This document shows, piece by piece, positions 4,924 to 53,989 of a DNA stretch of 64,000 nucleotides (its first letter is position 1; each line of letters begins with the position of its first letter). The stretch lies in NCBI GenBank assembly GCA_937120475.1, contig CAKZJV010000007.1, forward strand, positions 572,068 to 636,067, in the 5' to 3' direction. This DNA comes from an uncultured Cryomorphaceae bacterium (GTDB lineage: Bacteria; Bacteroidota; Bacteroidia; Flavobacteriales; Schleiferiaceae). The notes below the pieces were generated by a model. It had not been told where the DNA came from. It worked only from the letters and a program-made list of their open reading frames with translations, and ran no database searches. The position numbers and the translations under genes were made by a program.

Positions 4924-5011
4924 TTTTGAAAATCATTCTTAACCAATAAGTTAGGGTAAATTCTGGTTTCCGTATGTTTGAACTAAGTTTTTGCCTTAAT
5001 CTATTCCTGAT

Positions 5012-6403
5012 ATGAAAAAGCTAGTACTCAGTCTTTTATTATTACCCATTTTTATCGCTCAAAGCTCCGCCAACCACATTGTAGGTGCAGAACTCAACTA
5101 CCGCATAGATGCGGCCGGAGATATTATTTTCACAGCAAATTTATATGGAAGACTCTCCCCACAAGGGTCCATTACATTTGGTGGTGGGACGGTACAAATC
5201 ACCAATAATGCAGGTATCAATATAAATATTCCCTTTGTTAAAGAAGATACTCTTCAATCGAGTATTGCGGTACCTTATGGTGTCAGGCGCAGGCAATACC
5301 AGGGAAAGGTTAATGTTTCTTCCCTAAACTGCAACAACTGCACCTTCAGTTTTTCCTATTGTTGCCGCAGTGCTTCCGCTAATTGGAATAATTCAACGGG
5401 TGTGTGGCTGGATGTTCAGGCTTTTTTGGATCTTTCAGCGGTCAATTCCTTTCCTTATTCCGGTCCATCTTTTCTGAGCGAACCCATGTATGCATTTCCG
5501 CAGGATACCCTATGGAAATACGACCTTTTGCTCTTCGATGCGGATGGGGATTCCACCTACACTTCGTTGGTCATTCCTTCCACACCGAACTATTCACTAC
5601 CTCCTTCCAATCCATCGGGCATTATTAATTTAAGCCCAGAGGGGATATTTAGCTGGAATGCTCCGGCTTCAGGAACCTACAGCCTTATTTATAAAGTTGA
5701 AAAATTTAACTCTGCAGGTGTATTAACGGGCAGTAGTACCCGTGATGTGCTCCTGGGCGTTAACCTGGATAGCTCTTTGTACGGCTACTCAATACTTCCC
5801 CCCAATATTTCCAATACCCTGGGTGGTATTCCCCTGGTTGATTTCACCGGAGATTCTACCAACCTTTTTACGCTCCCCTTTTATTTGAATGATACCAATG
5901 CTCAAATAGGCGTTACCGTTTCAGGCGCACCTTTTGAATATCAAAATTCCGATGCCGCGTTTACCGTAGCCAAGCTCAAGCGAAATAGTGATACTTTGAT
6001 GGCTGTTTTCAGTTGGAGTCCGCAGGCCGCAAGAAAAAGAGATGAGCCTTACCGGGTGGCCTTCAGTTTTTACGATGGTGCCTTTACCTATGATTACAGC
6101 GTTTACCTTACGGTGAATTCAGTAGTTGGCCAGAAGGAAAATCCCGTTAATTCCCCATTTTCCACCCTTTTCCCTAACCCCAGTAACGGAGAAGTAAACC
6201 TGGGTATCAGCGAAAACTGGTCGTCCGGTAAGTTGGAAATCCGAGCCTACAACACCTCCGGACAGCTTGTTTACCAGGAACATTTGCAAAATATTCAGCC
6301 GGGTGAAAACCTCCGCCTGTCTAAAAAATTCGAAAATGGCTTCTACCTCGTTCAATTAAAAGGTGATAAGCGCCAGGAAACCTTACCGCTATTAGTTCAT
6401 TAG
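5012..6403 (+). CDS. secreted protein with T9SS C-terminal sorting domain (Por_Secre_tail)
   Basis: Signal peptide. C-terminus FPNPSNGEVNL...GFYLVQLKGDKRQETLPLLVH is typical of a type A T9SS C-terminal domain. Confidence 0.7.
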   Translation: MKKLVLSLLLLPIFIAQSSANHIVGAELNYRIDAAGDIIFTANLYGRLSPQGSITFGGGTVQITNNAGININIPFVKEDTLQSSIAVPYGVRRRQYQGKVNVSSLNCNNCTFSFSYCCRSASANWNNSTGVWLDVQAFLDLSAVNSFPYSGPSFLSEPMYAFPQDTLWKYDLLLFDADGDSTYTSLVIPSTPNYSLPPSNPSGIINLSPEGIFSWNAPASGTYSLIYKVEKFNSAGVLTGSSTRDVLLGVNLDSSLYGYSILPPNISNTLGGIPLVDFTGDSTNLFTLPFYLNDTNAQIGVTVSGAPFEYQNSDAAFTVAKLKRNSDTLMAVFSWSPQAARKRDEPYRVAFSFYDGAFTYDYSVYLTVNSVVGQKENPVNSPFSTLFPNPSNGEVNLGISENWSSGKLEIRAYNTSGQLVYQEHLQNIQPGENLRLSKKFENGFYLVQLKGDKRQETLPLLVH

Positions 6404-6415
6404 CCTTTTACATTT

Positions 6416-6913
6416 ATGAAAAAAGTATTCTTAGCACTTTGCCTTGGACTATTTACAACTTCTCTCCTAAAAGCTCAATCCAAACTACCCGCCTCTTATT
6501 TAAACGTTGGCCTGGGGGTTGGAATGAACTATGGCATAATAGGAACCAAAACGGTTATAGGCTATAAAAACTCCGGCCTGCTGGTTGGCCTTGGTTATTT
6601 ACCGGGTGGTTTTACGGGTTACGAAGTAGGCGCTCAACTGGGCATAAATTGGTTTTTCGCCAATTTTGGCTACGGTACCATAGGTACTTACCAGGTAAAC
6701 AATGAAGACCCTCAGGTTACGGAGGCTTTTAACTTAATGGTGGGAGCAATGATAGGGCTCGGCCAGAGTAAGCGAACTTTTATTGATCTTGGTGTAGGCC
6801 ATACCTTTGGAGCTCCGGCTATTGAGTCGCCATTAGGTGAGATCGAACAGAATGCATTCACCATTGCTTTAGGCGTAGGATACCGCTTTGGAACCATCAA
6901 AAAGAGAGATTAA
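6416..6913 (+). CDS. small Gly-rich secreted or outer-membrane protein
   Basis: Signal peptide ending KAQS. Gly-rich beta-type sequence. Confidence 0.45.
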   Translation: MKKVFLALCLGLFTTSLLKAQSKLPASYLNVGLGVGMNYGIIGTKTVIGYKNSGLLVGLGYLPGGFTGYEVGAQLGINWFFANFGYGTIGTYQVNNEDPQVTEAFNLMVGAMIGLGQSKRTFIDLGVGHTFGAPAIESPLGEIEQNAFTIALGVGYRFGTIKKRD

Positions 6914-33640: not shown

Positions 33641-35368
33641 GTGCCCGTTAACCGTAATGCCCTTATCCGCTACCGCACCCTTGATAACTGCCTGCGTAAC
33701 CGTTTCAGAAAGTGGACTTTAGAAGACCTGATTGAGGCCTGCTCGGATGCCCTGTACGAGTATGAAGGCATTGATAAGGGGGTAAGCCGCAGAACGGTGC
33801 AAATGGATATCCAGATGATGCGCAGTGATAAACTGGGTTACAATGCACCCATCGTGGTTTTGGAAAAAAAGTATTACACCTACGAGGACCCGGATTATTC
33901 CATTACCAATATTCCGCTCACCGACCAAGACCTGATTAAACTTACCGAGGTAACTGAGATCCTGCGACAGTTTAAGGGCTTTACCCATTTTCAGGATCTG
34001 GATGGAATGGTGAACCGCCTTGAAGACAAGATCTACACCGCTAAAACCCACCAACAACCCATTATTGATTTTGAAAAGAATGAAAACCTGCGGGGCCTGG
34101 AATACATTGACCCGCTTTACAAGGCCATCCAGCAGAAGCATTGCGTTAAAGTGGCCTACCAAAGCTTTAAAGCCAGGGTGCCGCAGGAGATTACCTTCCA
34201 CCCTTTTCTCCTTAAAGAATTCCGAAACCGCTGGTTTTTGCTGGGTGCTCATAATAAAGGAAAAACAACTATGCTTTTAGCGCTGGACCGGATTACCTCG
34301 GTTTCGCCTTTAAAAGCCCTGGCTTGTTGCCAACCCGGTTTTGATGTACAGAACTATTTCAAGGATGTGGTAGGTGTTACCGTTAATCAAGGCGATACCA
34401 CTGAAAAGATTATCCTTTTTGTAGATCGTAGAAACGCCCCTTACGTGATCACCAAACCTATTCATCCCAGCCAGGAAGTGCTGGAGAGCAATAAGTTCGG
34501 TATCATTATCTCCTTGCACGTTCAACTCAATTACGAATTGGAACGGGAGATACTGGGCTTTGGCCCGCAAATGAAAGTACTGGCCCCCCACCATTTCAAA
34601 AGACGAATGAAGAACCTCCTACGAGAGGCTGTGGATACTTATGAATCAGAGATCACTACGCCTCGTATGAAACAATCCCAAAACCGATTGCAAAAAAGGG
34701 GTTACGACATACTACAGCAGGTTTTTACCACCCGTGAAACCGATAAAATGAAACATATTATCGGTAAATACCTCAATAGTGTTAATGAAAATCCCGGGGG
34801 TAAGAAAAGTATTTCCATCCGGCAACTGCTGCAAAAAATACCGGAATTGGAACGATTGATTTTCAACGCCAATATGGATAAACTCCTGCAAGAATTGATT
34901 CCTGGATCCCGGCTCACCAAGGCCATATATTTTGATAAGCCCCACTTGAGCAACTGGTATGTTACCTGGCACCAGGACATTACGATAAATGTCAAAGAAC
35001 GTATTGATACGGAAGGTTTTTCCGGATGGACCAGTAAAGAGGGGTTCTTTGCCGTTTGTCCACCCGAAGAGTACCTTCACAAAACTCTTACTATCCGTAT
35101 TCACCTCGATGATTCGCTGGAGAGCAATGGTACCCTGAAGGTGATACCGGGTACCCATAAAAAGCGGCTCTCCGATGATGAAATTCAACTGATCACCCAA
35201 AACACCAGCCCTGCTGTTTGCGAGATTCCTAAAGGTGGTGTTCAGTTTATGAAACCTTTACTTCTCCATAGCTCCTCCAAATCCAAAGCACAACGTTCTC
35301 GCAGGGTGATCCACCTGGAATTTTGTACGGCTGAATTACCGGTAGGTTTGGAATGGAGTGAAAATTAG
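33641..35368 (+). CDS. WYL-domain transcriptional regulator (HTH-WYL-WCX) fused to a C-terminal PhyH-like Fe(II)/2OG dioxygenase domain
   Basis: N-terminus NALIRYRTL...VSRRTVQMDIQMM (wHTH). WYL-like core FHPFLLKEFRNRWFLLG. C-terminal ~240 aa with WHQD...NGTLKVIPGTHK...RRVIHLEF, an HxD...H oxygenase signature. Single uninterrupted 575-aa ORF. Confidence 0.6.
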   Translation: MPVNRNALIRYRTLDNCLRNRFRKWTLEDLIEACSDALYEYEGIDKGVSRRTVQMDIQMMRSDKLGYNAPIVVLEKKYYTYEDPDYSITNIPLTDQDLIKLTEVTEILRQFKGFTHFQDLDGMVNRLEDKIYTAKTHQQPIIDFEKNENLRGLEYIDPLYKAIQQKHCVKVAYQSFKARVPQEITFHPFLLKEFRNRWFLLGAHNKGKTTMLLALDRITSVSPLKALACCQPGFDVQNYFKDVVGVTVNQGDTTEKIILFVDRRNAPYVITKPIHPSQEVLESNKFGIIISLHVQLNYELEREILGFGPQMKVLAPHHFKRRMKNLLREAVDTYESEITTPRMKQSQNRLQKRGYDILQQVFTTRETDKMKHIIGKYLNSVNENPGGKKSISIRQLLQKIPELERLIFNANMDKLLQELIPGSRLTKAIYFDKPHLSNWYVTWHQDITINVKERIDTEGFSGWTSKEGFFAVCPPEEYLHKTLTIRIHLDDSLESNGTLKVIPGTHKKRLSDDEIQLITQNTSPAVCEIPKGGVQFMKPLLLHSSSKSKAQRSRRVIHLEFCTAELPVGLEWSEN

Positions 35369-41869: not shown

Positions 41870-42586
41870 TTATCGGTTATAAATAGACCCACAAACTGGA
41901 ATACATTCAAAAATGGTCCCGATACTCCAGGGGTCGTTCTGTCCGTCACAATCCGGAAATTCGGGTGGCAAGTAGCCGGTATTGGTAATATCCTTATTTC
42001 CACTTTGATCCAAACACACGGTAAACCGCTCCAGGCAGCAATCGGTGGTGGTACAGGGCCAGATAATGTCTATATAGTTAGGCCCGCTGGTATAGGTGGT
42101 CTGACCGGAAGTCTTTCCTACTCCCAATATTACATCCCCTCTCCAACAGGAGCCCTTCAATACCCTCCAGTTGGTGGCACAATCACCAGGATTTACCGGG
42201 GGAAAGGCCGCGGGGTTGGCTATAATCAGCTGTTCACTTACCAGGCGTAGAAATTCATTCATACCCCCTACCGAATTAATACAGTTGTAAAAATCGGTAC
42301 TATTGGTTCCGGGTCCTGGTGTGATCTGATCACCTATGTAGTAGTCGTACCAAATACCGCAGGCAATGCGAAAACCATATTCTACTTCAAAATACTTGCC
42401 CGGGCAAATTTCAAGGGTGATATTAAAAGGTCCCTGAAAAGGATCGTTAAAACAATCCGGCAAACAGGCATCCTGCATTGTTTGTCCGTAGGTTGCAGGC
42501 AGCGATGTCAATCCTAGCACGAAGGCTAGAAGCAGTGCTTTTAAACCAAAGCTCAGCTTAGTTTTTGAGTTGTTCAAATGTTTCAT
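41870..42586 (-). CDS. secreted Cys-rich protein (238 aa)
   Basis: Signal peptide (ATYGQT). More than 18 Cys residues. No recognised domain. Confidence 0.5.
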   Translation of the reverse strand: MKHLNNSKTKLSFGLKALLLAFVLGLTSLPATYGQTMQDACLPDCFNDPFQGPFNITLEICPGKYFEVEYGFRIACGIWYDYYIGDQITPGPGTNSTDFYNCINSVGGMNEFLRLVSEQLIIANPAAFPPVNPGDCATNWRVLKGSCWRGDVILGVGKTSGQTTYTSGPNYIDIIWPCTTTDCCLERFTVCLDQSGNKDITNTGYLPPEFPDCDGQNDPWSIGTIFECIPVCGSIYNR

Positions 42587-43809: not shown

Positions 43810-44382
43810 ATGAAAACTCTGAAACTCTCATTCACTGGCATAAGTATGCTGGTGGGCACCCTCTTTTTTCTCAGCACCGGCTGTTCCAAAGAAGAAAAAC
43901 AAGCCCGGGAAACATCCGACAAAAAGATATTTTGTTCCTTCTCCGATGTAAGCGCCAGTAATTATTCACCCCAGTTGGGTGATGCTCTGTTTGGTGCGTG
44001 GACCTATCCGGGCGATAATCCGGGAACTATGGATGCCTACGTAGGTTGTAACTTTCCCGCTGCACCCTACGATCCCAATTGCTGCAGCCCCGTAACGGTG
44101 TATCTCACACCCACCGGATATAGCTACGGTATTGCCGCTTTTGAAATATGGGGTCCCGGAGATGGTAAATTGGTGGGTGGTACCTGCACTGCCGCTACCC
44201 AACAGGCGCTTATGGACCGTGTAGAGGCACACGCAAATGGTTTAAGTATTCCCTGCCAGGGTGGGCAACTCAACCCTACTTCCTACACCTTTTCGTATAG
44301 CGTTATTACTAATGGTAGTGGGTCTATAGGTGTAGAAGTAAAAGCGCAATTCTCACCTACCTGTTACACCTTCTTCCCTTGA
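43810..44382 (+). CDS. hypothetical lipoprotein
   Basis: Lipobox LSTGCSK. Cys-rich. Followed by a terminator. Confidence 0.5.
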   Translation: MKTLKLSFTGISMLVGTLFFLSTGCSKEEKQARETSDKKIFCSFSDVSASNYSPQLGDALFGAWTYPGDNPGTMDAYVGCNFPAAPYDPNCCSPVTVYLTPTGYSYGIAAFEIWGPGDGKLVGGTCTAATQQALMDRVEAHANGLSIPCQGGQLNPTSYTFSYSVITNGSGSIGVEVKAQFSPTCYTFFP

Positions 44383-44407
44383 TAAATTTTTAGTACCTAT
44401 AGAAAGA

Positions 44408-44435
44408 AAGCCCGGTTAAACCCGGGCTTTTTTTA
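44408..44435 (+). terminator. rho-independent terminator
   Basis: AAAGCCCGG-TTAAA-CCCGGGCTTT followed by TTTTTT. Confidence 0.65.
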
Positions 44436-44588
44436 TTGCGGTAAGCTTTATTTCCCATTTACCTCATTTTTCATTGTACTGCTTATACCAGGACTTCCAT
44501 TCGCTCAAAAAAACATACTCTTTACATCTATTTCTTCCCCCTTAAGAGCAAATGTTCTAATTTCAGAAAGCCAATTTAAAACCAAACC

Positions 44589-47285
44589 ATGTCCAATTTA
44601 TCAACTCTTTGCAGTGAGCTAAAGGCCGTTACCGGTCAGGGCTCCGTTACTCTACCCAATAGTCAGGTTACCGCTGTGGACCTGAATAGCTTTATCAACA
44701 ATATTTTTAAAACCGAAAGCATTGCCCTGGGGCAGGTCTCAGTAGCCTGTAACGACTCTACCGTTACCCTTACCGGTATCTGGATGTTTCTGGGGGCAGC
44801 CGTAAATGTTACCTGGTCGTTTACCGAAGAAGGTGACGGTTCCATTACCTGGGGTATAAGTGCCAGTTCCACCACTACCAGTTCGGTAAATACCGTGCTA
44901 CAGCAGTTCCTTTCTGATGTGCCAGACATACCTTCTACCGTTAGTGGTTTGCAACTTACCCAACTGGGTTTTGATGCTTCCTTCAATACTACTACTAAAT
45001 CGTATCAGTTAGACCTTAAAGCCTCCACCACCTGGGGTGCCGTGGAACTGCTGGTTCAGGATAACAGTGGCACATGGGGTGCCGCCTTTGGTATTAGCGT
45101 GAGCGACACTTTTACCTTATCCAAAATTGATAGTGGCCTCACCGTGTTCAACAGCCTCAGCTTTTCCAATTCGGCCGTGGTGGTAGCTGATTTTGAAGAC
45201 GGCAGCATTCAGATTGCCGGTATTACCGGGGTGGTGAAAGGAGTAGAATTCCGCTCCACCCTTAACGTGAATGAAACTAGCGGAACTTCGGCTTTAGCCG
45301 AAATCATGAATGAACTGGGTAAAAGCCTTAGCGGGGTACCCCTGGATATTTCCCTGGACCTCAGCACTACCGAGTTTAAGTTGGAAGCCTCTATCGGTAA
45401 ATCCTTTGCCCTGCCTGGTTTTAGTAAACTTACTTTGTCCAATATTAATTTTACGCTGGACACTACTCCTTCGGCCAGCCTTTCCGGAACCCTGGATATG
45501 CCGATTACCATTCCCGCTGACCCAACGGTAAACAGCATAAGTGTAACCGGTTCTATTTCATTTACCTACAGCGATGGCACCGGTACGGTGCAAGCCACAC
45601 TCAACAGTGATACTGTAATTAAAGAGCCTTTTAATTTTTACGGGGTAACCCTACAGGATGTTGGGGTAGGCCTGGACGTTTCCTTCGGTGTGGAAACCGG
45701 GGCCGGGGTCACCCTGGAAGGCGCCTTTCAACTGGGTAGCGATCAGCCGTTGAGTGAAAAATTCGCGGTAACCATGGAGTTTACCGATGACTTGCCCAAC
45801 CCTTCCCTGCTATACGTGGAAAGCAAAAATTTGAGTTTGCCCACTCTGTTCAATGCACTCATCAGTAGTAGTATTACCCTACCCTCGGTACTCAGTGGTT
45901 TCCAGTTTACGGAATTAACGCTGTACTGGTGCGATAAGGCCCAAAACCTGCCCGATGGCACCCCCTGTAAAGTGGGTTACGGTTACAATGCCGCTCTTGA
46001 CCTTTGGGGCTTTGATACTTATACCGAGTTAATGATCAATCAAGGCAGCGGCATCACCGGAACGGCCAGTGCCAACCCCATATCCCTTTGGAGTGGGAAA
46101 ATCAGTTTGACCGGTAGTGGTCCCGGGGGCAAAGGTGTAACAGCCGGTGGGCCCTATTTTAACTTTGATACGTCCAAAGAATCTTTCGATGTTAGTGTAG
46201 ATGCCAATATTCTGGGAATAACCGAAGTAGTCAACGCCAGTGTGTCTTCCTCCTCCCTGGATATTAATATGAGCAGCAACTTCGGCTTCTTGCAGGATTC
46301 GCTGGCCGTAACTTTTAAAGATGGTGGGGCTACCATGGCTTTTTCCAGCTCCCTGAACATCGGCATCAACGCTTCACCCAGTATTTCCATCGGTAGCGTA
46401 AACCTGGGAACCATTCATATCGATGATTCCCTGAGCGGTAGCCTGGATGTATCCTTTCAAAACGGTAAATTAACTGCACAGGTAAACGGAAACTTTAATT
46501 TTAACGGGGCTTCCTTCGGCTTTAACTATGACGTAGGCACCAGCCTTACCGATCTCGGAGACCTGGCCGGAGCTATTGCCCAAAAAATTGAAAGTGAAGC
46601 CGAAGCCATCTTCCAGCACTACTTCTCGGATGTGAAAAACTACATAGATGTGGTAGGTAAAGGACTGTTGACCGGGGGCGAGTTTGTATTGAACGCCCTT
46701 TATCACGCCTACACCACTTCCATTACCGAAATTATTGATCTGATCTCCGACCTGCCTTCCGGTTTCAAAGTAGATGGTACCGTTGATTTTGAGATCAATA
46801 TAGCACCCAGCATACCTTCAGAATCCTTCCATGCCGATTTGGGGCACATCCTCAATACCCACGGTGATGCACACGGTGACCACTCCGTAGGTTTCTTGGG
46901 GCATTTTGATCATTCGCTCTTCAATATCCACGGTGACATTAGCGCCAGCCAGGGCTTCAGCACCCCGGCCTTCAGCTTTACCCTGCTGGATATTCACCCA
47001 CAGCAACACTTTGATATGACTATGCCGCCAACTATACATGCCGATGCTCAATCTCCACACATCGATGCTTCTCCGCACCTGGATTTGGGTATTGCTGGTG
47101 GATCACTGGGCGTAGGCGGTAATGTAGATGTAAACAGTTCCGTAGCGCTGAACGACATTAGCCTGCAGGCCCACCTCAACGTTTCGGCCCATGCCGGGGT
47201 ACATGCTGATGTATTGCACGTAGGTGCGCATGGCGATACGGGTACACACATCGATCAGGGACTTCCTCACGTAGATTTAGGTTGA
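44589..47285 (+). CDS. large Ser/Thr/Gly-rich protein with a C-terminal His-x-Asp repeat tail; putative substrate of the downstream radical SAM enzyme
   Basis: 898 aa, no signal peptide. The last ~150 aa carry about 14 H-x-D triplets (HAD, HGD, HFD, HID, HLD, HVD). Its stop codon lies 1 nt before the radical SAM start. Confidence 0.55.
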   Translation: MSNLSTLCSELKAVTGQGSVTLPNSQVTAVDLNSFINNIFKTESIALGQVSVACNDSTVTLTGIWMFLGAAVNVTWSFTEEGDGSITWGISASSTTTSSVNTVLQQFLSDVPDIPSTVSGLQLTQLGFDASFNTTTKSYQLDLKASTTWGAVELLVQDNSGTWGAAFGISVSDTFTLSKIDSGLTVFNSLSFSNSAVVVADFEDGSIQIAGITGVVKGVEFRSTLNVNETSGTSALAEIMNELGKSLSGVPLDISLDLSTTEFKLEASIGKSFALPGFSKLTLSNINFTLDTTPSASLSGTLDMPITIPADPTVNSISVTGSISFTYSDGTGTVQATLNSDTVIKEPFNFYGVTLQDVGVGLDVSFGVETGAGVTLEGAFQLGSDQPLSEKFAVTMEFTDDLPNPSLLYVESKNLSLPTLFNALISSSITLPSVLSGFQFTELTLYWCDKAQNLPDGTPCKVGYGYNAALDLWGFDTYTELMINQGSGITGTASANPISLWSGKISLTGSGPGGKGVTAGGPYFNFDTSKESFDVSVDANILGITEVVNASVSSSSLDINMSSNFGFLQDSLAVTFKDGGATMAFSSSLNIGINASPSISIGSVNLGTIHIDDSLSGSLDVSFQNGKLTAQVNGNFNFNGASFGFNYDVGTSLTDLGDLAGAIAQKIESEAEAIFQHYFSDVKNYIDVVGKGLLTGGEFVLNALYHAYTTSITEIIDLISDLPSGFKVDGTVDFEINIAPSIPSESFHADLGHILNTHGDAHGDHSVGFLGHFDHSLFNIHGDISASQGFSTPAFSFTLLDIHPQQHFDMTMPPTIHADAQSPHIDASPHLDLGIAGGSLGVGGNVDVNSSVALNDISLQAHLNVSAHAGVHADVLHVGAHGDTGTHIDQGLPHVDLG

Positions 47286-47286
47286 T

Positions 47287-48465
47287 ATGGGAGTTGAACT
47301 GAGGCCTATGGGCGTAAAATGCAATATTGCCTGCCAGTATTGCTATCAACACCCGCAACGTGATGTAGAGGACAAGCGGAAGCCCTACGATATGGAGCTT
47401 ATGAAAGAAGCCATCCTGAAAGAGGGTCAGAAATTTACCCTCTTTGGCGGTGAAGCCTTAATGGTGCCCCTGGAAGACCTGGAGGAGTTGTGGAGCTGGG
47501 GGCTAAAGGAGTTTGGTATAAACTCCGTGCAAACCAACGGTTCACTAATTACGGAAGCGCACATTGACCTTTTTATAAAGTACAAAGTGCAGGTAGGTGT
47601 GTCTATGGACGGGCCGGACGCACTCAATGATGTCCGCTGGGCCGGAAGCCTGAAACGTACCCGCGAACACACGCAAAAATCACAATGGGCCATTGAGCGG
47701 ATGTGCGAAAGAGGTATTCCCCCGGCCATGATCATAACCTTACATAAAGGCAATGCTACGGCCGATAAGCTGCCCGAAATGGACCGCTGGTTGATGGGTT
47801 TGGATAAGATCGGTGTGAATAGCGTACGGCTTCACCTTATGGAGGTAGAAAATGAAACCCTGAGGCAAGCCTACCACCTCAGCCCCGGGGAGAACCTACA
47901 CGCTCTTACCCATTTTCATCACCTGGAAAAAGAAATGAACGACCTGCGCTTTGATATTTTTGGAGAAATCAAACGTTTGCAAAATGCCGAAGACCACCAG
48001 GTAAGTTGCGTATGGAAAGCCTGTGACCCTTATACCACCGCTGCCGTTCGCGGTGTGGAAGGTGAAGGGCAACGCAGCAACTGCGGACGTACCAATAAAG
48101 AAGGTATCGAATTTGTAAAGGCTCCGTTACCCTCCTATTCACGCTACATCGCTCTGTATCACACACCCCAGGAAGCCGGTGGCTGTAAAGGCTGCCGTTT
48201 CTTTAGTATGTGCAAGGGGCATTGCCCGGGCACCTCTTTGGAAGGCGACTGGCGTTTTAGAACCGAGCACTGCGAGGTGTGGAAAAAGATGTTTGAACTG
48301 GCCGAGGAGGAAGCAGTGGCTGAAGGTAAAACCCCGCTCTCCTTGCACCCGGCCCGCCCCTACCTGGAGCAACGCCTGCTGGAAGGTTGGAGCCGTGGAC
48401 AAAACTACGCCCTGCAAAGCCTGATCAAGGAAATGGCCTCCAAACCTCAAATGGCAACGGTATGA
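47287..48465 (+). CDS. radical SAM enzyme with a C-terminal SPASM/twitch-like Cys cluster
   Basis: CNIACQYC (Cx3Cx2C) at the N-terminus. C-terminal cysteines (CVWKAC...CGRT...CKGCRFFSMCKGHCPG). Start and stop codons overlap the neighbouring genes. Confidence 0.8.
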   Translation: MGVELRPMGVKCNIACQYCYQHPQRDVEDKRKPYDMELMKEAILKEGQKFTLFGGEALMVPLEDLEELWSWGLKEFGINSVQTNGSLITEAHIDLFIKYKVQVGVSMDGPDALNDVRWAGSLKRTREHTQKSQWAIERMCERGIPPAMIITLHKGNATADKLPEMDRWLMGLDKIGVNSVRLHLMEVENETLRQAYHLSPGENLHALTHFHHLEKEMNDLRFDIFGEIKRLQNAEDHQVSCVWKACDPYTTAAVRGVEGEGQRSNCGRTNKEGIEFVKAPLPSYSRYIALYHTPQEAGGCKGCRFFSMCKGHCPGTSLEGDWRFRTEHCEVWKKMFELAEEEAVAEGKTPLSLHPARPYLEQRLLEGWSRGQNYALQSLIKEMASKPQMATV

Positions 48466-49277
48466 ATGAGATGAGCTTTAGCATGCCCGCTTTTAAGAGC
48501 ATTGCCTGGGTAAGCAACCAGGCACGGCTTAGCTGGGCCCACCGCATTAAAAAACTCAACCACGCTTTGGCCGATACGGCCGTGAAGCTGGTAGCAGATG
48601 GACTACTTCCCAGCCTGCAAATAACCGTAGAAGGAGTGCTTTACTTTAAGCTTTTACAACAAGCAAGAGATCTGGAAGTACCCCTGGAAGGCCGTTTACT
48701 GGGCAATAAAGATGTTCCCGGCCCGGTGTATTACTGGGTACAACTGGGCGATCCGAAAAGTGGCTTATGCCGTGCTTGCGCGGAAAGCAGCTTATTGCAT
48801 TTGGAAAGCGGGGATAAAGAGTGCCTTTGGGAACTAAACTCCGAGGGGAACGATACCGAAACCATCCGCGAAACTGAAAATCCCGCCATTAGCGGGCACC
48901 TATGGCGTAAACTGGTGAGCCATACCGGACCAATAAGACCTTGCTCTCTGCATTGCTCCTCGCTGAGCCGCATTGATAGAAAGATAATGGATGGTCTCAG
49001 GATCAATGGTTATAGTGAAGAAGCTGAATGGCGTGAAGCTATTTATTCCTGGCCGGTTGAATGGAATGCCGTAAATGGTATTGCCGAACTGCGCAGCCCG
49101 GTAGTGAAGTTGGCTTATGACACCGATGCAGCCCAGGAAAAAAGAGTAATCCGTTTTAACGGTACCGCCTATCCTGAGGAAGGCCCCTTTGGCCGGGAAT
49201 TTCCCTATAAAAGACGCAGGTTTTTACGCATCTCCGATTCTAAATCATTTAAAGCCGGACTGGAGCATGGAAACTGA
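48462..49277 (+). CDS. hypothetical protein, translationally coupled (ATGA overlap) to the radical SAM gene
   Basis: Start taken at MNEMSF, where the ATG overlaps the TGA of the upstream gene. The track ORF begins at 48387. Confidence 0.45.
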   Translation: MNEMSFSMPAFKSIAWVSNQARLSWAHRIKKLNHALADTAVKLVADGLLPSLQITVEGVLYFKLLQQARDLEVPLEGRLLGNKDVPGPVYYWVQLGDPKSGLCRACAESSLLHLESGDKECLWELNSEGNDTETIRETENPAISGHLWRKLVSHTGPIRPCSLHCSSLSRIDRKIMDGLRINGYSEEAEWREAIYSWPVEWNAVNGIAELRSPVVKLAYDTDAAQEKRVIRFNGTAYPEEGPFGREFPYKRRRFLRISDSKSFKAGLEHGN

Positions 49278-50664
49278 AATACTCCCTTTTCTGAAACAAG
49301 ATGAGTGGGCCCTGGCGGCAGTACCCCAAAAGAATGGTAGCGACACCGCTATTTTCCAAAAGGCAGCCCGGCACACCGAATTAAAGATTGCACCGCCAAA
49401 AAGTCCGGAAGAACCCGGTTATTTAAATCATAAAGTTGCACTTCGTCACCGTGATTGGGACAGTGATTTTTTGCAGTCTTTTGAGCACGCACCCTTCGAC
49501 CACCCTATGTTGAAAGAGGCCGAAGAACTACTGCGATGCTGGCCGGAAATGTATGCTCAATGCGGGGAGATACTGAAGGAATTCAACCCGGTTTTTATAA
49601 AGGGTATTGAAGACCGGAAAGACCATACCGGCTCCAACAGCCATCAACCGAAAGGTACTTTGGGGAGTATGTGGGCTACCGTTCACAACCCGGTGTTATT
49701 GGCGCAAGCCATCGTTCATGAAACGGCTCACAATAAGCTGTTTTCCTTAGGACAACACTTTGAAACACCGGGTCCCCTATTCAACAATCGCCCGGATGAG
49801 TTGTACGACAGTCCGGTGCGTTTGGATATTCCCCGGCCGATGCCGGCTGTTTTTCACGGGGTATATGCCTTTACCCATGTACTGGCACTGGATCGAAAGA
49901 TGTTCCAAAAAGCTAAAGCCGAATATCGCGGCTTTATACTGGGCTTGCTTCACCACAATGCCTTGCGCATAAAAAAAGGATTACAGTGGGTGGAAAGCTG
50001 TGCGCAACTAACTACGGCAGGCCGGGCCTTTATGCGCAGTTTCCTGCCCTGGGCGCACGGGGAGGTTGAAAAGGCTTTGCAGGAATCGCGGGTCGCTTCA
50101 CGCAACTACCAGGAAGGCCCCATTGCCCTGATCGGTTTAACTCCCGAAAGTCGTAAACGTACCATCGATCGCCTGGTACAGGAAACCGGCCGGGCAGTGG
50201 TTCAACTGGATAATATTAAATGGGAAGTGTGGGCACAATCTTCCGTAGTTCAAAAAAAGCAGCTGGATCAGTACGGTTCACCGGAACTGATGAAAGCCTT
50301 TACCGAAAGTGGCAAGTTTCATCCGCAACAATATTTAAGCAACTGGTTGGCCCGGGGAGTTTTTAATCTTTTGGAATACGAATTTCTCAAACTGCAATTG
50401 GCCAGTTACGCCATACAAAAGTATCCGAACGCTATACTCGATTTTGGCCATGATAATGCTCTGTTGGAGCAAGACGAATTCCTGGCCCGTTTGCAGCAAT
50501 TATTTCGCGAAACAAATACCCGGGTTATTTATACCCGTCCACTGGCTTCCGTTGAAGACAGCATAGAACGGCTGAAGGAAAATAGTGTTTCAGCCGAGCA
50601 TTTACGCAAGGCCCTTGAATTACCCGCGTACCGGACCCTTGGTGTTGAAGTGGTAGTTTGTTAA
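49267..50664 (+). CDS. HExxH-motif protein of the kind found next to radical SAM/SPASM maturases
   Basis: AIVHETAHNKLF HExxH motif. Start taken at METEIL, overlapping the upstream gene. The track ORF begins at 49189. Confidence 0.45.
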   Translation: METEILPFLKQDEWALAAVPQKNGSDTAIFQKAARHTELKIAPPKSPEEPGYLNHKVALRHRDWDSDFLQSFEHAPFDHPMLKEAEELLRCWPEMYAQCGEILKEFNPVFIKGIEDRKDHTGSNSHQPKGTLGSMWATVHNPVLLAQAIVHETAHNKLFSLGQHFETPGPLFNNRPDELYDSPVRLDIPRPMPAVFHGVYAFTHVLALDRKMFQKAKAEYRGFILGLLHHNALRIKKGLQWVESCAQLTTAGRAFMRSFLPWAHGEVEKALQESRVASRNYQEGPIALIGLTPESRKRTIDRLVQETGRAVVQLDNIKWEVWAQSSVVQKKQLDQYGSPELMKAFTESGKFHPQQYLSNWLARGVFNLLEYEFLKLQLASYAIQKYPNAILDFGHDNALLEQDEFLARLQQLFRETNTRVIYTRPLASVEDSIERLKENSVSAEHLRKALELPAYRTLGVEVVVC

Positions 50665-50815: not shown

Positions 50816-52756
50816 ATGGATCATGACTCTATTGTACGGGTGGCTATCTATCCACCTTTGGGTATTGCCCGTGTGGGTAATTCCAACGAATATTTTTTCG
50901 CTTCCGATGTTCCGGGCGTGGCCCCGAAACCCGAAGGCGGCTATAAAGACGGTGATAATCGCGTTAAAAAACAGGTAGCCCGTTTCCGGGTGTATGCCTT
51001 TAATGCGGATGGTAAACCCCTGGGTGAATTAAATCATAACAACTCTACACAGATCGAGTGGCGGGTGCATTCCGCCAATGTTAAAGCGGCCTGGTACCAG
51101 TTTAATAATGCTTTGGATCTATCCGATCGTGGGATTTCATCCTTATACCGCAACAGCAGTGTTACGGGTGCCGACCGTCAGCAAATGGTAATCGACCCGG
51201 GCTCCCGTACCATCTCCGGGCTCAATCAGCAAGGCCCGGAATACCAGCTGGACGGTGGTAAATTCTTTGACATGGAAGTTCCCTTGGGTGAAATCCGTAC
51301 CGATGAACAAGGAAGACTGCTTTACTTCGGTGGAGACGGGCATTCGGCTTCTCTCAACAACGCTCCTGCCACCACTTTTGCCAATAACGATGGCTGGCAC
51401 GATGATACCTCCGATGGTGTGATACGGGCTACGGTAAGGCTCAGCAATGGCCAAACGCTGGAAGCCACCCCCGCCATGGTAGCCGTTACTCCCCCTGATT
51501 TTGGTCCGGGTCTTTATGGTGTAGTCACCATGAATGATGTGGTGCAGAACCTCTTCATCAACGAGATGAATTATCCCGATCCGGCTGCGGATGGTGTGGT
51601 CTTTTACCGCGACATCTACCCCATGCTGCAACGCATGACCAACACACAGTGGGTAAACCAAGGTTTTTATATGCTTTTCGGTAAAAACTCGCCATCGGAC
51701 TTTACCGATCCGGATTACCTCGCGCAGCTATCCAGCAACTCAGAAGCTAATAAAGCAGCGCGCATGCGTGTATTCAACTGGTTCCGCAACCCTGATGATG
51801 CTAAAGATACGCCTACCAAGATCCCGCCCTTTTACGGGGATGGTTTCGGGGAATACTACAATACCGCCCTAGACAATTTACCGGTAACCCAAATCCAGTA
51901 CGCGCGCCTGCAAAAATGGGCCAATGGCGATTTTGAGACCGGTAAGCTACAGCCTCCTAAAAGTTTTAATGAAATGACGCCCGGGGAGCAGATCAACTCC
52001 TTGAATCAAGCTCCTTTTGAAGAGTGCCTGGGTGGTCCCTTCCACCCCGGTATTGAAATTACCTGGCCCATGCGCGTTAAGCTCATGTGGGAAGAACCCT
52101 ATCGTTTGAAAACGGTAAAAGAAGGGGAATCCACTCAACTGGATTTTGGCCCTTTACTGACCTCTGAAATTGCGTTGTCAGCGGATGGCCCCTTGTCCAA
52201 AAGCGGACCCGGTGCCTTAACCCGCTGGCTGGGTGTACCTTGGCAAACCGATGAGGCCAGTTGCCTTTCCGGTTACAACACCACCTATTATCTGCCACTT
52301 CCCTCCTTTTGGGCGGCAAGGGTACCCAACCAGGTAATGAGCGAAGAAAGCTACCAGCGTATGCAGGATGAAAAACTAAACCTGGCGCAACGCCTCAAGC
52401 ACTTTGATTACCGCCAGGACTGGTTGCGTGACTTCGGTACGGTGTATCAAAAGAAGATCAATTATATGGTGCAGCGCTGGCACGACCTGGGTATTATTGC
52501 TCAGGATAGCAGCGATAATCAGGGGTCGGATAACTACTTGCCCGAACAGGTGTGGAAGGAAACCGGCCGCAATTTTGATCCGCTCAGCGACCCCACTTTT
52601 GAGCAAGTACTGATTGCCGAAGGTGTGAAAGAACCGCAAACCGAGCCCCTGCTAAAAGCAGCCCTTGCGGTTGAAGAGAAATCCGGTAAGGACAAGAAAG
52701 TGACCAAAGACTCCATCCGGAGGCAGCAACGCACCTTCGGACGTGGGGAGTTATAA
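50816..52756 (+). CDS. LodA-like protein (putative quinoprotein amino-acid oxidase family)
   Basis: 646-aa protein immediately upstream of a LodB-like flavoprotein gene. Size and gene pairing match lodA/lodB. No motif could be verified by eye. Confidence 0.4.
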   Translation: MDHDSIVRVAIYPPLGIARVGNSNEYFFASDVPGVAPKPEGGYKDGDNRVKKQVARFRVYAFNADGKPLGELNHNNSTQIEWRVHSANVKAAWYQFNNALDLSDRGISSLYRNSSVTGADRQQMVIDPGSRTISGLNQQGPEYQLDGGKFFDMEVPLGEIRTDEQGRLLYFGGDGHSASLNNAPATTFANNDGWHDDTSDGVIRATVRLSNGQTLEATPAMVAVTPPDFGPGLYGVVTMNDVVQNLFINEMNYPDPAADGVVFYRDIYPMLQRMTNTQWVNQGFYMLFGKNSPSDFTDPDYLAQLSSNSEANKAARMRVFNWFRNPDDAKDTPTKIPPFYGDGFGEYYNTALDNLPVTQIQYARLQKWANGDFETGKLQPPKSFNEMTPGEQINSLNQAPFEECLGGPFHPGIEITWPMRVKLMWEEPYRLKTVKEGESTQLDFGPLLTSEIALSADGPLSKSGPGALTRWLGVPWQTDEASCLSGYNTTYYLPLPSFWAARVPNQVMSEESYQRMQDEKLNLAQRLKHFDYRQDWLRDFGTVYQKKINYMVQRWHDLGIIAQDSSDNQGSDNYLPEQVWKETGRNFDPLSDPTFEQVLIAEGVKEPQTEPLLKAALAVEEKSGKDKKVTKDSIRRQQRTFGRGEL

Positions 52757-52966: not shown

Positions 52967-53989
52967 TTGGACCCGCTTAATACAGATATAGTAATCATTG
53001 GTGGCGGCCCCGCAGGGGTCGCCACTTCTTTAACCCTCACGGCACGGGGAGTTCCCCATGTAGTGGTAGAGGCCCAAAAACAACCCCAGCGCAAAGCCGG
53101 GGAAGCTTTACCGCCCAATGCCAAACCATTGTTGCGGCAATTGGGTATGGATGACCTGATGGAGCATCCCGCTCACCTCCCCTACCACGGTAATCAAAGC
53201 ATTTGGAAAGGTTCGCCCCTCCGCACCGAGGACTTTATCAAGTGCGTACACGGTCACGGTTATCTGCTGGACCGTCTGGTTTTTGAGCAACAACTAAGGA
53301 AACTGGTGAAAGCCCCTTTTTACACCGGCTATAAATTGCGATCGCTTTCTTCATTAGAAAATGGTGTGGAAGTCACGGTGGAAAACCTGGCGGATTCACT
53401 TGGTTTTAAAGCCCGGTATATCGTAGATGCTACCGGCCGTAAAGCCAGCGTATGCCGGCATTTAGGCGTGGTACCTACCGTATTGGACGAATGGTTCGGG
53501 CTGTGGTTTTATGCCGAGGGCAAAGCCCCGAAGCAAATCTTTGTGGAAAGTACCGAACAAGGTTGGTGGTATGCCGCTCCCTTTGGTGCAAACCAGGTCA
53601 CAATGATGTTCTTTACCCGCAAGGAATACATTCCCACCAAAGCCAAAATACCGGCTTTTCTGCAAAAGCAATTCCGGCAAACCACGCAACTCGCCAAAAC
53701 GTTTAGCATTCCTGATCTCAGCCCTGCCGAAGTACAGATTCGCCCCTCCGGAACGGCCTTTCTGGATCAACCGTATGGTACTAACTGGTTAGCGGTAGGT
53801 GATGCCGCTTACGCTTACGACCCTATTTCGTCTTTTGGTATTACCTCCGCCCTGGCGGGCGGTTACTATGCCGGTCATGCCTTAGCCGATAGTTTAGAAG
53901 GAAAGGATGATGCTTTAGGGGTATATCGTTATGTGATGGAGAATGCTTTTCAGGGTTATAAAGAAAAGTTGATCAAAGTATATGCTTAA
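52967..53989 (+). CDS. FAD-dependent oxidoreductase (LodB-like or halogenase/GG-reductase-like flavoprotein); TTG start
   Basis: DIVIIGGGPAGVATSLTL Rossmann FAD motif. GDAAYAYDP motif (GD...DP of the flavin monooxygenase family). Confidence 0.65.
   Translation: MDPLNTDIVIIGGGPAGVATSLTLTARGVPHVVVEAQKQPQRKAGEALPPNAKPLLRQLGMDDLMEHPAHLPYHGNQSIWKGSPLRTEDFIKCVHGHGYLLDRLVFEQQLRKLVKAPFYTGYKLRSLSSLENGVEVTVENLADSLGFKARYIVDATGRKASVCRHLGVVPTVLDEWFGLWFYAEGKAPKQIFVESTEQGWWYAAPFGANQVTMMFFTRKEYIPTKAKIPAFLQKQFRQTTQLAKTFSIPDLSPAEVQIRPSGTAFLDQPYGTNWLAVGDAAYAYDPISSFGITSALAGGYYAGHALADSLEGKDDALGVYRYVMENAFQGYKEKLIKVYA

Follow-up and report, generated by a model that had tools for sequence, protein, structure and literature searches.

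Triceptide synthases, which are radical S-adenosylmethionine (SAM) enzymes with a SPASM domain, make crosslinks from C2 of histidine to a β-carbon on the motifs HAA, HNR, HTK and HAS (PMC11499958; PMC12912966). Enzymes of the α-ketoglutarate (aKG)-HExxH type hydroxylate Asp and His only after the cyclophane has formed (PMC12636437), and YhhC provides a case in which β-hydroxy-Asp is made in a triceptide. For Thermus phages, a preprint has described a conserved "rSAM module" to which it assigned no function, and it did not mention His repeats (bioRxiv 10.1101/2024.08.14.607894). We analyzed a stretch of 64,000 nucleotides (nt) from an uncultured Cryomorphaceae bacterium (contig CAKZJV010000007.1, positions 572,068 to 636,067 of the forward strand), referred to here as the window, in which an 898-residue protein ends in an array of His-x-Asp (HxD) triplets and is followed by a radical SAM/SPASM enzyme. 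Comparison of sequences and gene neighborhoods indicates that the HxD tail is very probably the substrate of this adjacent enzyme, because the linkage between the two holds for unrelated carrier proteins, for short peptides, and for enzyme fusions. Full-text literature searches (the subscription literature lay outside their scope) found no description of HxD arrays as substrates of radical SAM enzymes, or of radical SAM enzymes with tail fibers.

The HxD tail and its operon

The cassette comprises four genes on the + strand, in the order HxD protein, radical SAM/SPASM enzyme, DUF483-like protein (p270), and aKG-HExxH peptide β-hydroxylase. Their positions in the window, and that of the array, are as follows.

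44589..47285, + strand: gene of the 898-residue HxD-tailed protein, with a β-rich body (residues ~1–650), a helical linker (residues ~656–719), and the HxD tail
46830..47276, + strand: proposed modification sites (core region), from HxD count, shuffles, and column conservation among homologs
47287..48465, + strand: radical SAM/SPASM enzyme, 392 residues, from CxxxCxxC at C12/C16/C19, SPASM cysteines, and profile matches
48462..49277, + strand: p270, DUF483-like partner, 271 residues, with three invariant cysteines and a conserved C-terminal motif, SWPVEW..HGIAELR.P
49267..50664, + strand: aKG-HExxH-type peptide β-hydroxylase, 465 residues, from TIGR04267 (79.6 bits; cut-off, 40) and an HETAH motif

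The stop codon of the HxD gene (TGA, 47283–47285) is separated by 1 nt from the start codon of the radical SAM gene (ATG, 47287). The ATG of p270 at 48462 overlaps the radical SAM stop codon as ATGA, and the HExxH gene, which starts with the ATG at 49267, shares 11 nt with the p270 gene. Together, the four make up a single operon with translational coupling. An initial annotation of the window had placed a tail with about 14 HxD triplets directly before the radical SAM gene, and the translated DNA bears this out. Thirteen triplets lie between residues 748 and 896 (nt 46830–47276), starting at residues 748, 758, 762, 772, 781, 807, 817, 824, 830 (HLD), 872, 881, 887, and 894, and a lone HID outside the tail, at residue 610, brings the count to about 14. 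The tail peptide quoted in that annotation agrees with the translation, and its coordinates were right to within 6 nt; the first triplet (HAD) begins 6 nt before the start given, 46836.

Twenty of the protein's 23 histidines sit in its last 151 residues, and a 149-residue segment of the tail that was used for testing is entirely free of K, R, E, C, W, and Y. When this segment was shuffled 100,000 times with its composition preserved, the shuffled versions had on average 2.0 HxD triplets and at most 8, whereas the real segment has 12; no shuffle reached that number. Richness in His and Asp therefore does not account for the array. A recent tandem repeat at the DNA level was sought in the tail and none was found. 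In an alignment of 20 homologs, the tail's His and Asp positions hardly change, whereas the middle residue varies.

The body had been described from the sequence as Ser/Thr/Gly-rich and of β type. These three residues make up 33% of it, and an AlphaFold2 model of the protein (mean predicted local distance difference test score, 80.6) is mostly antiparallel β sheet. Most HxD triplets fall in β strands of the model, so residues i and i+2 would lie on one face. Structure comparison gave no fold match for the model, and Pfam, NCBIfam, PADLOC, and PHROGs gave no match for the protein, which has no evident signal peptide.

Linkage of HxD arrays to one radical SAM family

Homologs of the 898-residue protein form only 21 clusters among 5.8 billion proteins, all of 876–911 residues, and come from Aquimarina, Pontimicrobium, Cytophagales, Cryomorphaceae/Owenweeksia, and the gammaproteobacterium Methylumidiphilus. 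In each of the 10 distinct contexts of this family, a radical SAM gene is directly downstream and p270 is present. The HExxH gene follows in nine; it is an accessory, missing from the Methylumidiphilus cassette. The flanking genes are unrelated. Conversely, a homolog with 41% identity (P0021, at L004 780–3428) has kept the length of both body and tail and has lost every HxD; no radical SAM start was found in the 79 nt after its stop codon, where the contig ends. A distant relative of the body in L012, a metagenome-assembled genome (MAG) of Pseudomonadota, has a tail of another type that lacks HxD, and no radical SAM gene. The radical SAM homologs of Mucilaginibacter and of a Blastocatellia genome follow proteins of 1034 and 1066 residues, which are no more than ~25% identical to the window protein, yet end in HxD arrays.

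The same association was recovered from the side of the enzyme, in a survey of 71 non-redundant bacterial loci. An HxD-rich open reading frame (ORF) adjoined the radical SAM gene in 45 of them; at six loci HxD occurred solely on the enzyme's own C terminus, and at another six there were short peptides with two to four HxD. The remaining 14 loci had no HxD element, each with a flank of less than 2.1 kb. HxD-rich ORFs made up only 73 of the 6438 six-frame ORFs in these loci. The initial annotation had suggested checking whether a radical SAM gene follows other HxD-tailed proteins. It does in all 10 family contexts, the arrays found from the enzyme side support the link, and in no sample that we took were HxD tails common without a modification enzyme.

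Carriers of HxD span 45 to 1919 residues and include pure repeat proteins. In the repeat regions of 49 related substrates, Asp stands at position +2 of ~87% of histidines (827 of ~950); a small or aliphatic residue occupies the middle, and the His comes after Pro, Gly, or Ala. Fusions of enzyme and putative substrate, with HxD on the radical SAM C terminus, occur in 14 loci and in phages; enzymes of this kind carry 2–9 triplets in their own tail (for example, ...HGDVPHGDSDAHGDVPHGDRPHGDA). N-terminal arrays were also seen, on a protein with a Hint/intein-like domain and on a FAD-linked-oxidase-like protein, and other carriers have the array behind a Tat-like signal peptide or an N-terminal membrane anchor.

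L024 640–2031; L054 2867–5866; L091 4987–5637; L058 3090–3566; L075 5184–5942: diverse HxD carriers
L028, L044, L050, L051, L058, L059, L062, L081, L091, L095; most of the viral loci L101–L163; L165 5001–6449: radical SAM enzymes with their own HxD tail

The linkage extends to archaea and viruses. A Halomicrococcus plasmid encodes, directly after a baseplate J gene, a 206-residue protein with 14 HxD, a radical SAM enzyme 29% identical to that of the window, and a p270 homolog (hhalign probability, 97%). IMG/VR holds 63 viral contigs with the radical SAM family. Among the 53 that are distinct, 45 have an HxD-rich neighbor (directly upstream in 41) and 44 have HxD on the tail of the enzyme; on one contig the module comes after tail, host-specificity, and tail-fiber genes. 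The module is carried by the cultured Thermus thermophilus phages Cumys, phiMa, and phiLo. In Cumys, gp13 follows baseplate and tail-collar-fiber genes and has all 54 of its 54 histidines within HxD; it precedes a radical SAM enzyme with its own HGD tail and then an annotated DUF483-domain protein. In phiLo (L165), the sole nearby HxD array is the one on the enzyme itself (5001–6449). An N-terminal triple repeat, GSxW[IV]EGxxLxY[LV]D..G.E, precedes the array in phage and haloarchaeal proteins.

L164 (Cumys) 4961–5992; L120 4988–6001; L099 4338–4958: proteins with the triple repeat, just after baseplate, tail-collar, or tail-fiber genes

Linkage of HxD array, radical SAM enzyme, and DUF483 protein is thus maintained in different bacterial phyla, on a haloarchaeal plasmid, and in tailed phages, whatever the carrier. 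Two exceptions were seen. A Halorussus aquaticus plasmid (L100, 4971–7176) has the radical SAM and DUF483 genes with no HxD ORF within 5 kb, and the pair adjoins a transposase-like fragment; the viral locus L142, with full flanks, has no HxD element. The radical SAM family itself is large and far exceeds the family of the 898-residue protein: 1955 database matches at E ≤ 1e-10, of which the best 120 are all at least 56% identical, in addition to at least 451 metagenome loci, the viral contigs, and the three cultured phages.

These data bear on a second reading, in which the tail stays unmodified and either binds metal (Zn, Ni, or Fe; the initial annotation had raised Zn or Ni) or is structural, and the radical SAM enzyme acts elsewhere, for example on DNA. 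His and Asp are classical metal ligands, phage tail fibers and spikes bind iron through His-x-His arrays, and at one locus the partner protein carries a fused DUF364 domain ("putative heavy-metal chelation"). DNA modification was suggested for the phage module (bioRxiv 10.1101/2024.08.14.607894). We nevertheless regard an unmodified tail as improbable. It leaves unexplained why this radical SAM family keeps company with unrelated HxD proteins, with peptides of two to four HxD, and with HxD fused to the enzyme, and why the enzyme is lacking beside HxD-less relatives of the body where sequence is available. Moreover, profile searches and the survey of neighbors revealed no DNA-modification genes in the window cassette. 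Metal binding may be what the modified product is for, but by itself it leaves the obligate linkage to the enzyme unaccounted for.

The body of the window protein belongs to a broad family of 632 representatives, most of which have other tails; HxD arrays are found in only 19 of its 148 top members. Most members (P0170, P0212, P0264; L012 6198–10094) have 1300–2000 residues and a different C-terminal module, built of tandem helical repeats of ~18 residues of the form ALKxAGY..x.V..AL. Those with the helical-repeat module share the N terminus M..IQEL, and no Pfam domain was found in them.

The enzymes and the proposed reaction

The cysteines of the CxxxCxxC motif (C12, C16, C19) are invariant in 25 sequences of the radical SAM family, and PF04055 (Radical_SAM) matches the window enzyme at 49.4 bits (cut-off, 29.5). 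Eight C-terminal cysteines (C241, C246, C266, C300, C303, C309, C313, and C329) are also invariant, with CxxCx5Cx3C at 300–313, and the window enzyme contains the SPASM stretch CKGCRFFSMCKGHC. By these motifs the enzyme is a member of the radical SAM/SPASM superfamily. The best named profiles are AmcB, DynA, YhhB, and GrrM, which describe cyclophane-forming enzymes, together with that of the anaerobic sulfatase-maturating enzyme (anSME); all matches are far under the curated cut-offs and align the N-terminal core only.

A p270 homolog follows the radical SAM gene almost everywhere. The window p270 itself has no match in Pfam, NCBIfam, PADLOC, or PHROG. The Pfam model of DUF483 (PF04467) matches two of 11 homologs weakly and the window protein not at all, whereas a comparison of the p270 profile with the "DUF483-domain protein" of Cumys gave an hhalign probability of 99.8% (E = 1.7e-27). 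Many homologs exist as fusions with a methyltransferase, an HExxH domain, a 2-oxoglutarate (2OG) oxygenase, or DUF364. Four loci illustrate such fusions: L040 7169–8911 (DUF364), L054 7561–10584 (methyltransferase, HExxH, and 2OG oxygenase), L023 7188–8723 (methyltransferase alone), and L014 9192–11123 (HExxH alone). This fusion pattern resembles that of recognition domains in the pathways of RiPPs (peptides synthesized on ribosomes and post-translationally modified), which suggests, with low confidence, that p270 is a substrate-recognition or scaffold subunit. The fourth protein is, by its profile match and motif, a member of the aKG-HExxH peptide β-hydroxylase family (TIGR04267), with the corresponding activity predicted; its C-terminal extension of ~200 residues has no assigned function.

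Taken as a whole, the locus is, on balance, best explained as a dedicated protein-modification module, in which the radical SAM/SPASM enzyme and its DUF483 partner would act on the HxD tail as a substrate array. As to the reaction, we tentatively propose a crosslink from His to the β-carbon of Asp in each triplet, followed by hydroxylation. The proposal draws on the aromatic-x-x form of the motif, the co-encoded HExxH protein, and the known crosslinks at C2 of His. QhpD sets a precedent in this enzyme class for hydrogen abstraction at the β-carbon of Asp. In our model, the radical SAM enzyme would abstract a hydrogen from the β-carbon of each Asp in the cytoplasm, and the resulting radical would add to the imidazole of the triplet's His, two residues upstream, giving a three-residue His-to-Asp crosslink with a loss of 2 Da per triplet. 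The DUF483 protein would present the substrate or dock tailoring enzymes, and the aKG-HExxH enzyme would then β-hydroxylate Asp and/or His in the crosslinked rings. As the repeats function within a wide range of proteins, it would be the repeats themselves, rather than a leader, that are recognized. The resulting tail, on a large β-rich protein, would be rigid, densely functionalized, and possibly metal-chelating.

Several points weigh against this proposal. The tail of the 898-residue family is well conserved outside the triplets too, and it is predicted by AlphaFold2 to be a folded β domain, both unlike a floppy RiPP core. The radical SAM enzyme scores 34–73 bits against cut-offs of 310–450 for the cyclophane-synthase models (XyeB, GrrM/OscB, FxsB, YhhB, AmcB) and is as close to anSME as to the cyclophane synthases; homology therefore does not fix the reaction. 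The role given to p270 is a guess from fusion patterns. Other repeat substrates receive other radical SAM chemistry, namely the conversion of TVGG to cyclopropylglycine (PMC9062424) and a +8 Da change on HxS repeats (PMC13128918), and the sole paper on the phage module guessed at modification of DNA (bioRxiv 10.1101/2024.08.14.607894). Both the crosslink and any modification of the tail are, we stress, inferred from genes, which leave the chemistry unfixed.

Several of these points suit an alternative in which the HxD array is the substrate and the reaction is a different one: an N–C or C–O link, a carbon insertion of the +8 Da type, epimerization, oxidation or decarboxylation of Asp, or methylation. 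The genomic linkage behind this alternative is identical to that behind the crosslink. The enzyme's equal closeness to anSME, a β-carbon oxidase, agrees with it, as does the varied chemistry known on repeat substrates (PMC13128918; PMC9062424), and the methyltransferase and 2OG-oxygenase fusions to the partner elsewhere point to rich tailoring. We consider a different reaction possible but rather unlikely, because aromatic-x-x spacing with strict pairing of i and i+2 is a signature of triceptide substrates (PMC11499958) and because the co-encoded aKG-HExxH hydroxylase is of a type known to need a pre-formed cyclophane (PMC12636437). Thioether chemistry of the sactipeptide, ranthipeptide, or QhpD type was rejected outright, since the tested 149-residue segment has no Cys.

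Should the His-to-Asp crosslink hold, HxD arrays and the radical SAM/DUF483 pair might together constitute a widespread, undescribed system of protein-level modification, a broader view that we hold still more tentatively, which would place tens of His–Asp crosslinks on full-length proteins and could add hydroxyl or methyl groups as an option. Its targets would include giant β-rich proteins of cells, proteins that are exported by Tat or anchored in membranes, fusions with oxidase or Hint domains, and a conserved protein encoded in the phage baseplate/tail-fiber module. Should this phage protein be part of the virion, no radical SAM-modified virion protein would precede it, and a novel type of protein module, rigid or metal-chelating, would be defined. 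The findings tie a precise three-residue code, His-x-Asp, to one large, unnamed radical SAM family, and chemistry like that of triceptides and the His-Xaa-Ser (HXS) system would be extended from natural-product peptides to the maturation of whole proteins of up to ~1900 residues. The phage "rSAM module" would be reinterpreted as modifying a protein encoded beside the tail genes instead of DNA. In the cultured Thermus phages, the modification could be read from purified virions or infected cells, and the size of the enzyme–substrate pairs would allow them to be co-expressed in E. coli.

The surroundings of the cassette in the window were also surveyed. A terminator-like element marks its 5′ boundary:

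44407..44437, + strand: GC-rich hairpin, AAAGCCCGG-TTAAA-CCCGGGCTTT, with a T run after it, closing the gene at 43810..44382

Upstream of the cassette, that gene (+ strand) and another at 41870..42586 (− strand) are small ORFs, Cys-rich or resembling lipoproteins. The 190-residue upstream ORF has 84% identity to one in a Cryomorphaceae MAG (L005) and is absent from other cassette loci. A prophage setting for the cassette was rejected, the neighbors being ordinary chromosomal genes. Right after the cassette are genes for a GoxA/LodA-like quinoprotein oxidase (50816..52756; Pfam LodA_N and LodA_C; NF038173 at 483 bits, below the cut-off of 750) and a GoxB/LodB-like flavoprotein maturase (52967..53989). 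This pair is a second system for a protein-derived cofactor adjoining the cassette. Its linkage is not kept in other genomes, and the two genes were rejected as cassette members because they are missing from all other related loci. Farther away, the ORF at 33641..35368 joins WYL and WCX domains to a C-terminal PhyH-type dioxygenase domain, an unusual fusion.

Comparison with known systems

The enzyme with the closest solved structure by sequence is anSME (68 bits, N-terminal core), which has the same SPASM architecture and abstracts hydrogen at a side-chain β-carbon. The window enzyme scores 65 bits against the anSME equivalog, however, far from the cut-off of 349, and the tested tail segment contains neither Cys nor Arg, making a C/S-x-P-x-R target impossible there.

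The "rSAM module" of the Thermus phages Cumys and phiMa has the same gene triad as the window. Its radical SAM enzyme is 48–52% identical, and its upstream "hypothetical protein" is an HxD array, as in the window. The phage module differs in sitting within the tail module, in the N-terminal domain of its HxD protein (three copies of GSxW[IV]EG..L.Y.D), and in lacking an HExxH gene.

The tail had initially been likened to the repeat substrates of the HXS system, in which HxsA, a protein with His-x-(small polar) repeats, is matured by radical SAM enzymes in the cytoplasm, and in which the product is a functional protein, as we propose here (PMC13128918). A small to medium partner protein binds the radical SAM enzyme in that system (PMC13128918), and p270 can be likened to it. 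These parallels could suggest that the cassette belongs to the HXS antiphage system (HxsABCD), whose product is likewise a protein and not a peptide (PMC13128918), but we give that possibility almost no weight. HXS has two radical SAM enzymes (HxsB and HxsC) as well as HxsD, whereas the window has one SPASM enzyme; the HxsB and HxsC models were not matched at E ≤ 1e-8 in 25 family members, and there is no small HxsD-like protein and no PADLOC hit beyond a generic similarity to viperin. The third residue of the motif is Ser in HXS and Asp here, with many more repeats; HxsA has a peptidoglycan-binding domain, whereas the window protein has no Pfam domain; and a defense role is attached to HXS only. 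The part of the likeness that stands is the reading of the repeats as a radical SAM substrate, which comparative genomics supports; membership in HXS is refuted, and the system is an analog.

Triceptides and the enzymes that form their three-residue cyclophanes (3-CyFEs; HaaB, YhhB, HtkB, MicB, and ChlB, the last with an aKG-HExxH domain) offer the other close comparison. A radical SAM/SPASM enzyme is common to both systems. Triceptide substrates have an aromatic-x-x motif, often repeated, as HxD is, and His is a known ring donor in HAA, HNR, HTK, and HAS. In both, an HExxH gene is found, which in triceptides encodes a hydroxylase that acts on Asp and His after ring formation. Against this, the window enzyme fails every curated 3-CyFE model widely, and Asp at position 3 is not reported in the triceptide papers that we read. 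Triceptides derive from a leader–core peptide, whereas here an 898-residue protein carries 13 sites (up to 54 in relatives). Instead of a short precursor with a leader and proteolytic release, the putative substrate is a conserved protein of 876–911 residues; short HxD peptides do occur at other loci of the radical SAM family. The DUF483 partner is obligatory here, the window cassette has no protease or exporter, and the crosslink is our proposal from gene content. The system works like triceptide and HXS maturation and is a member of neither.

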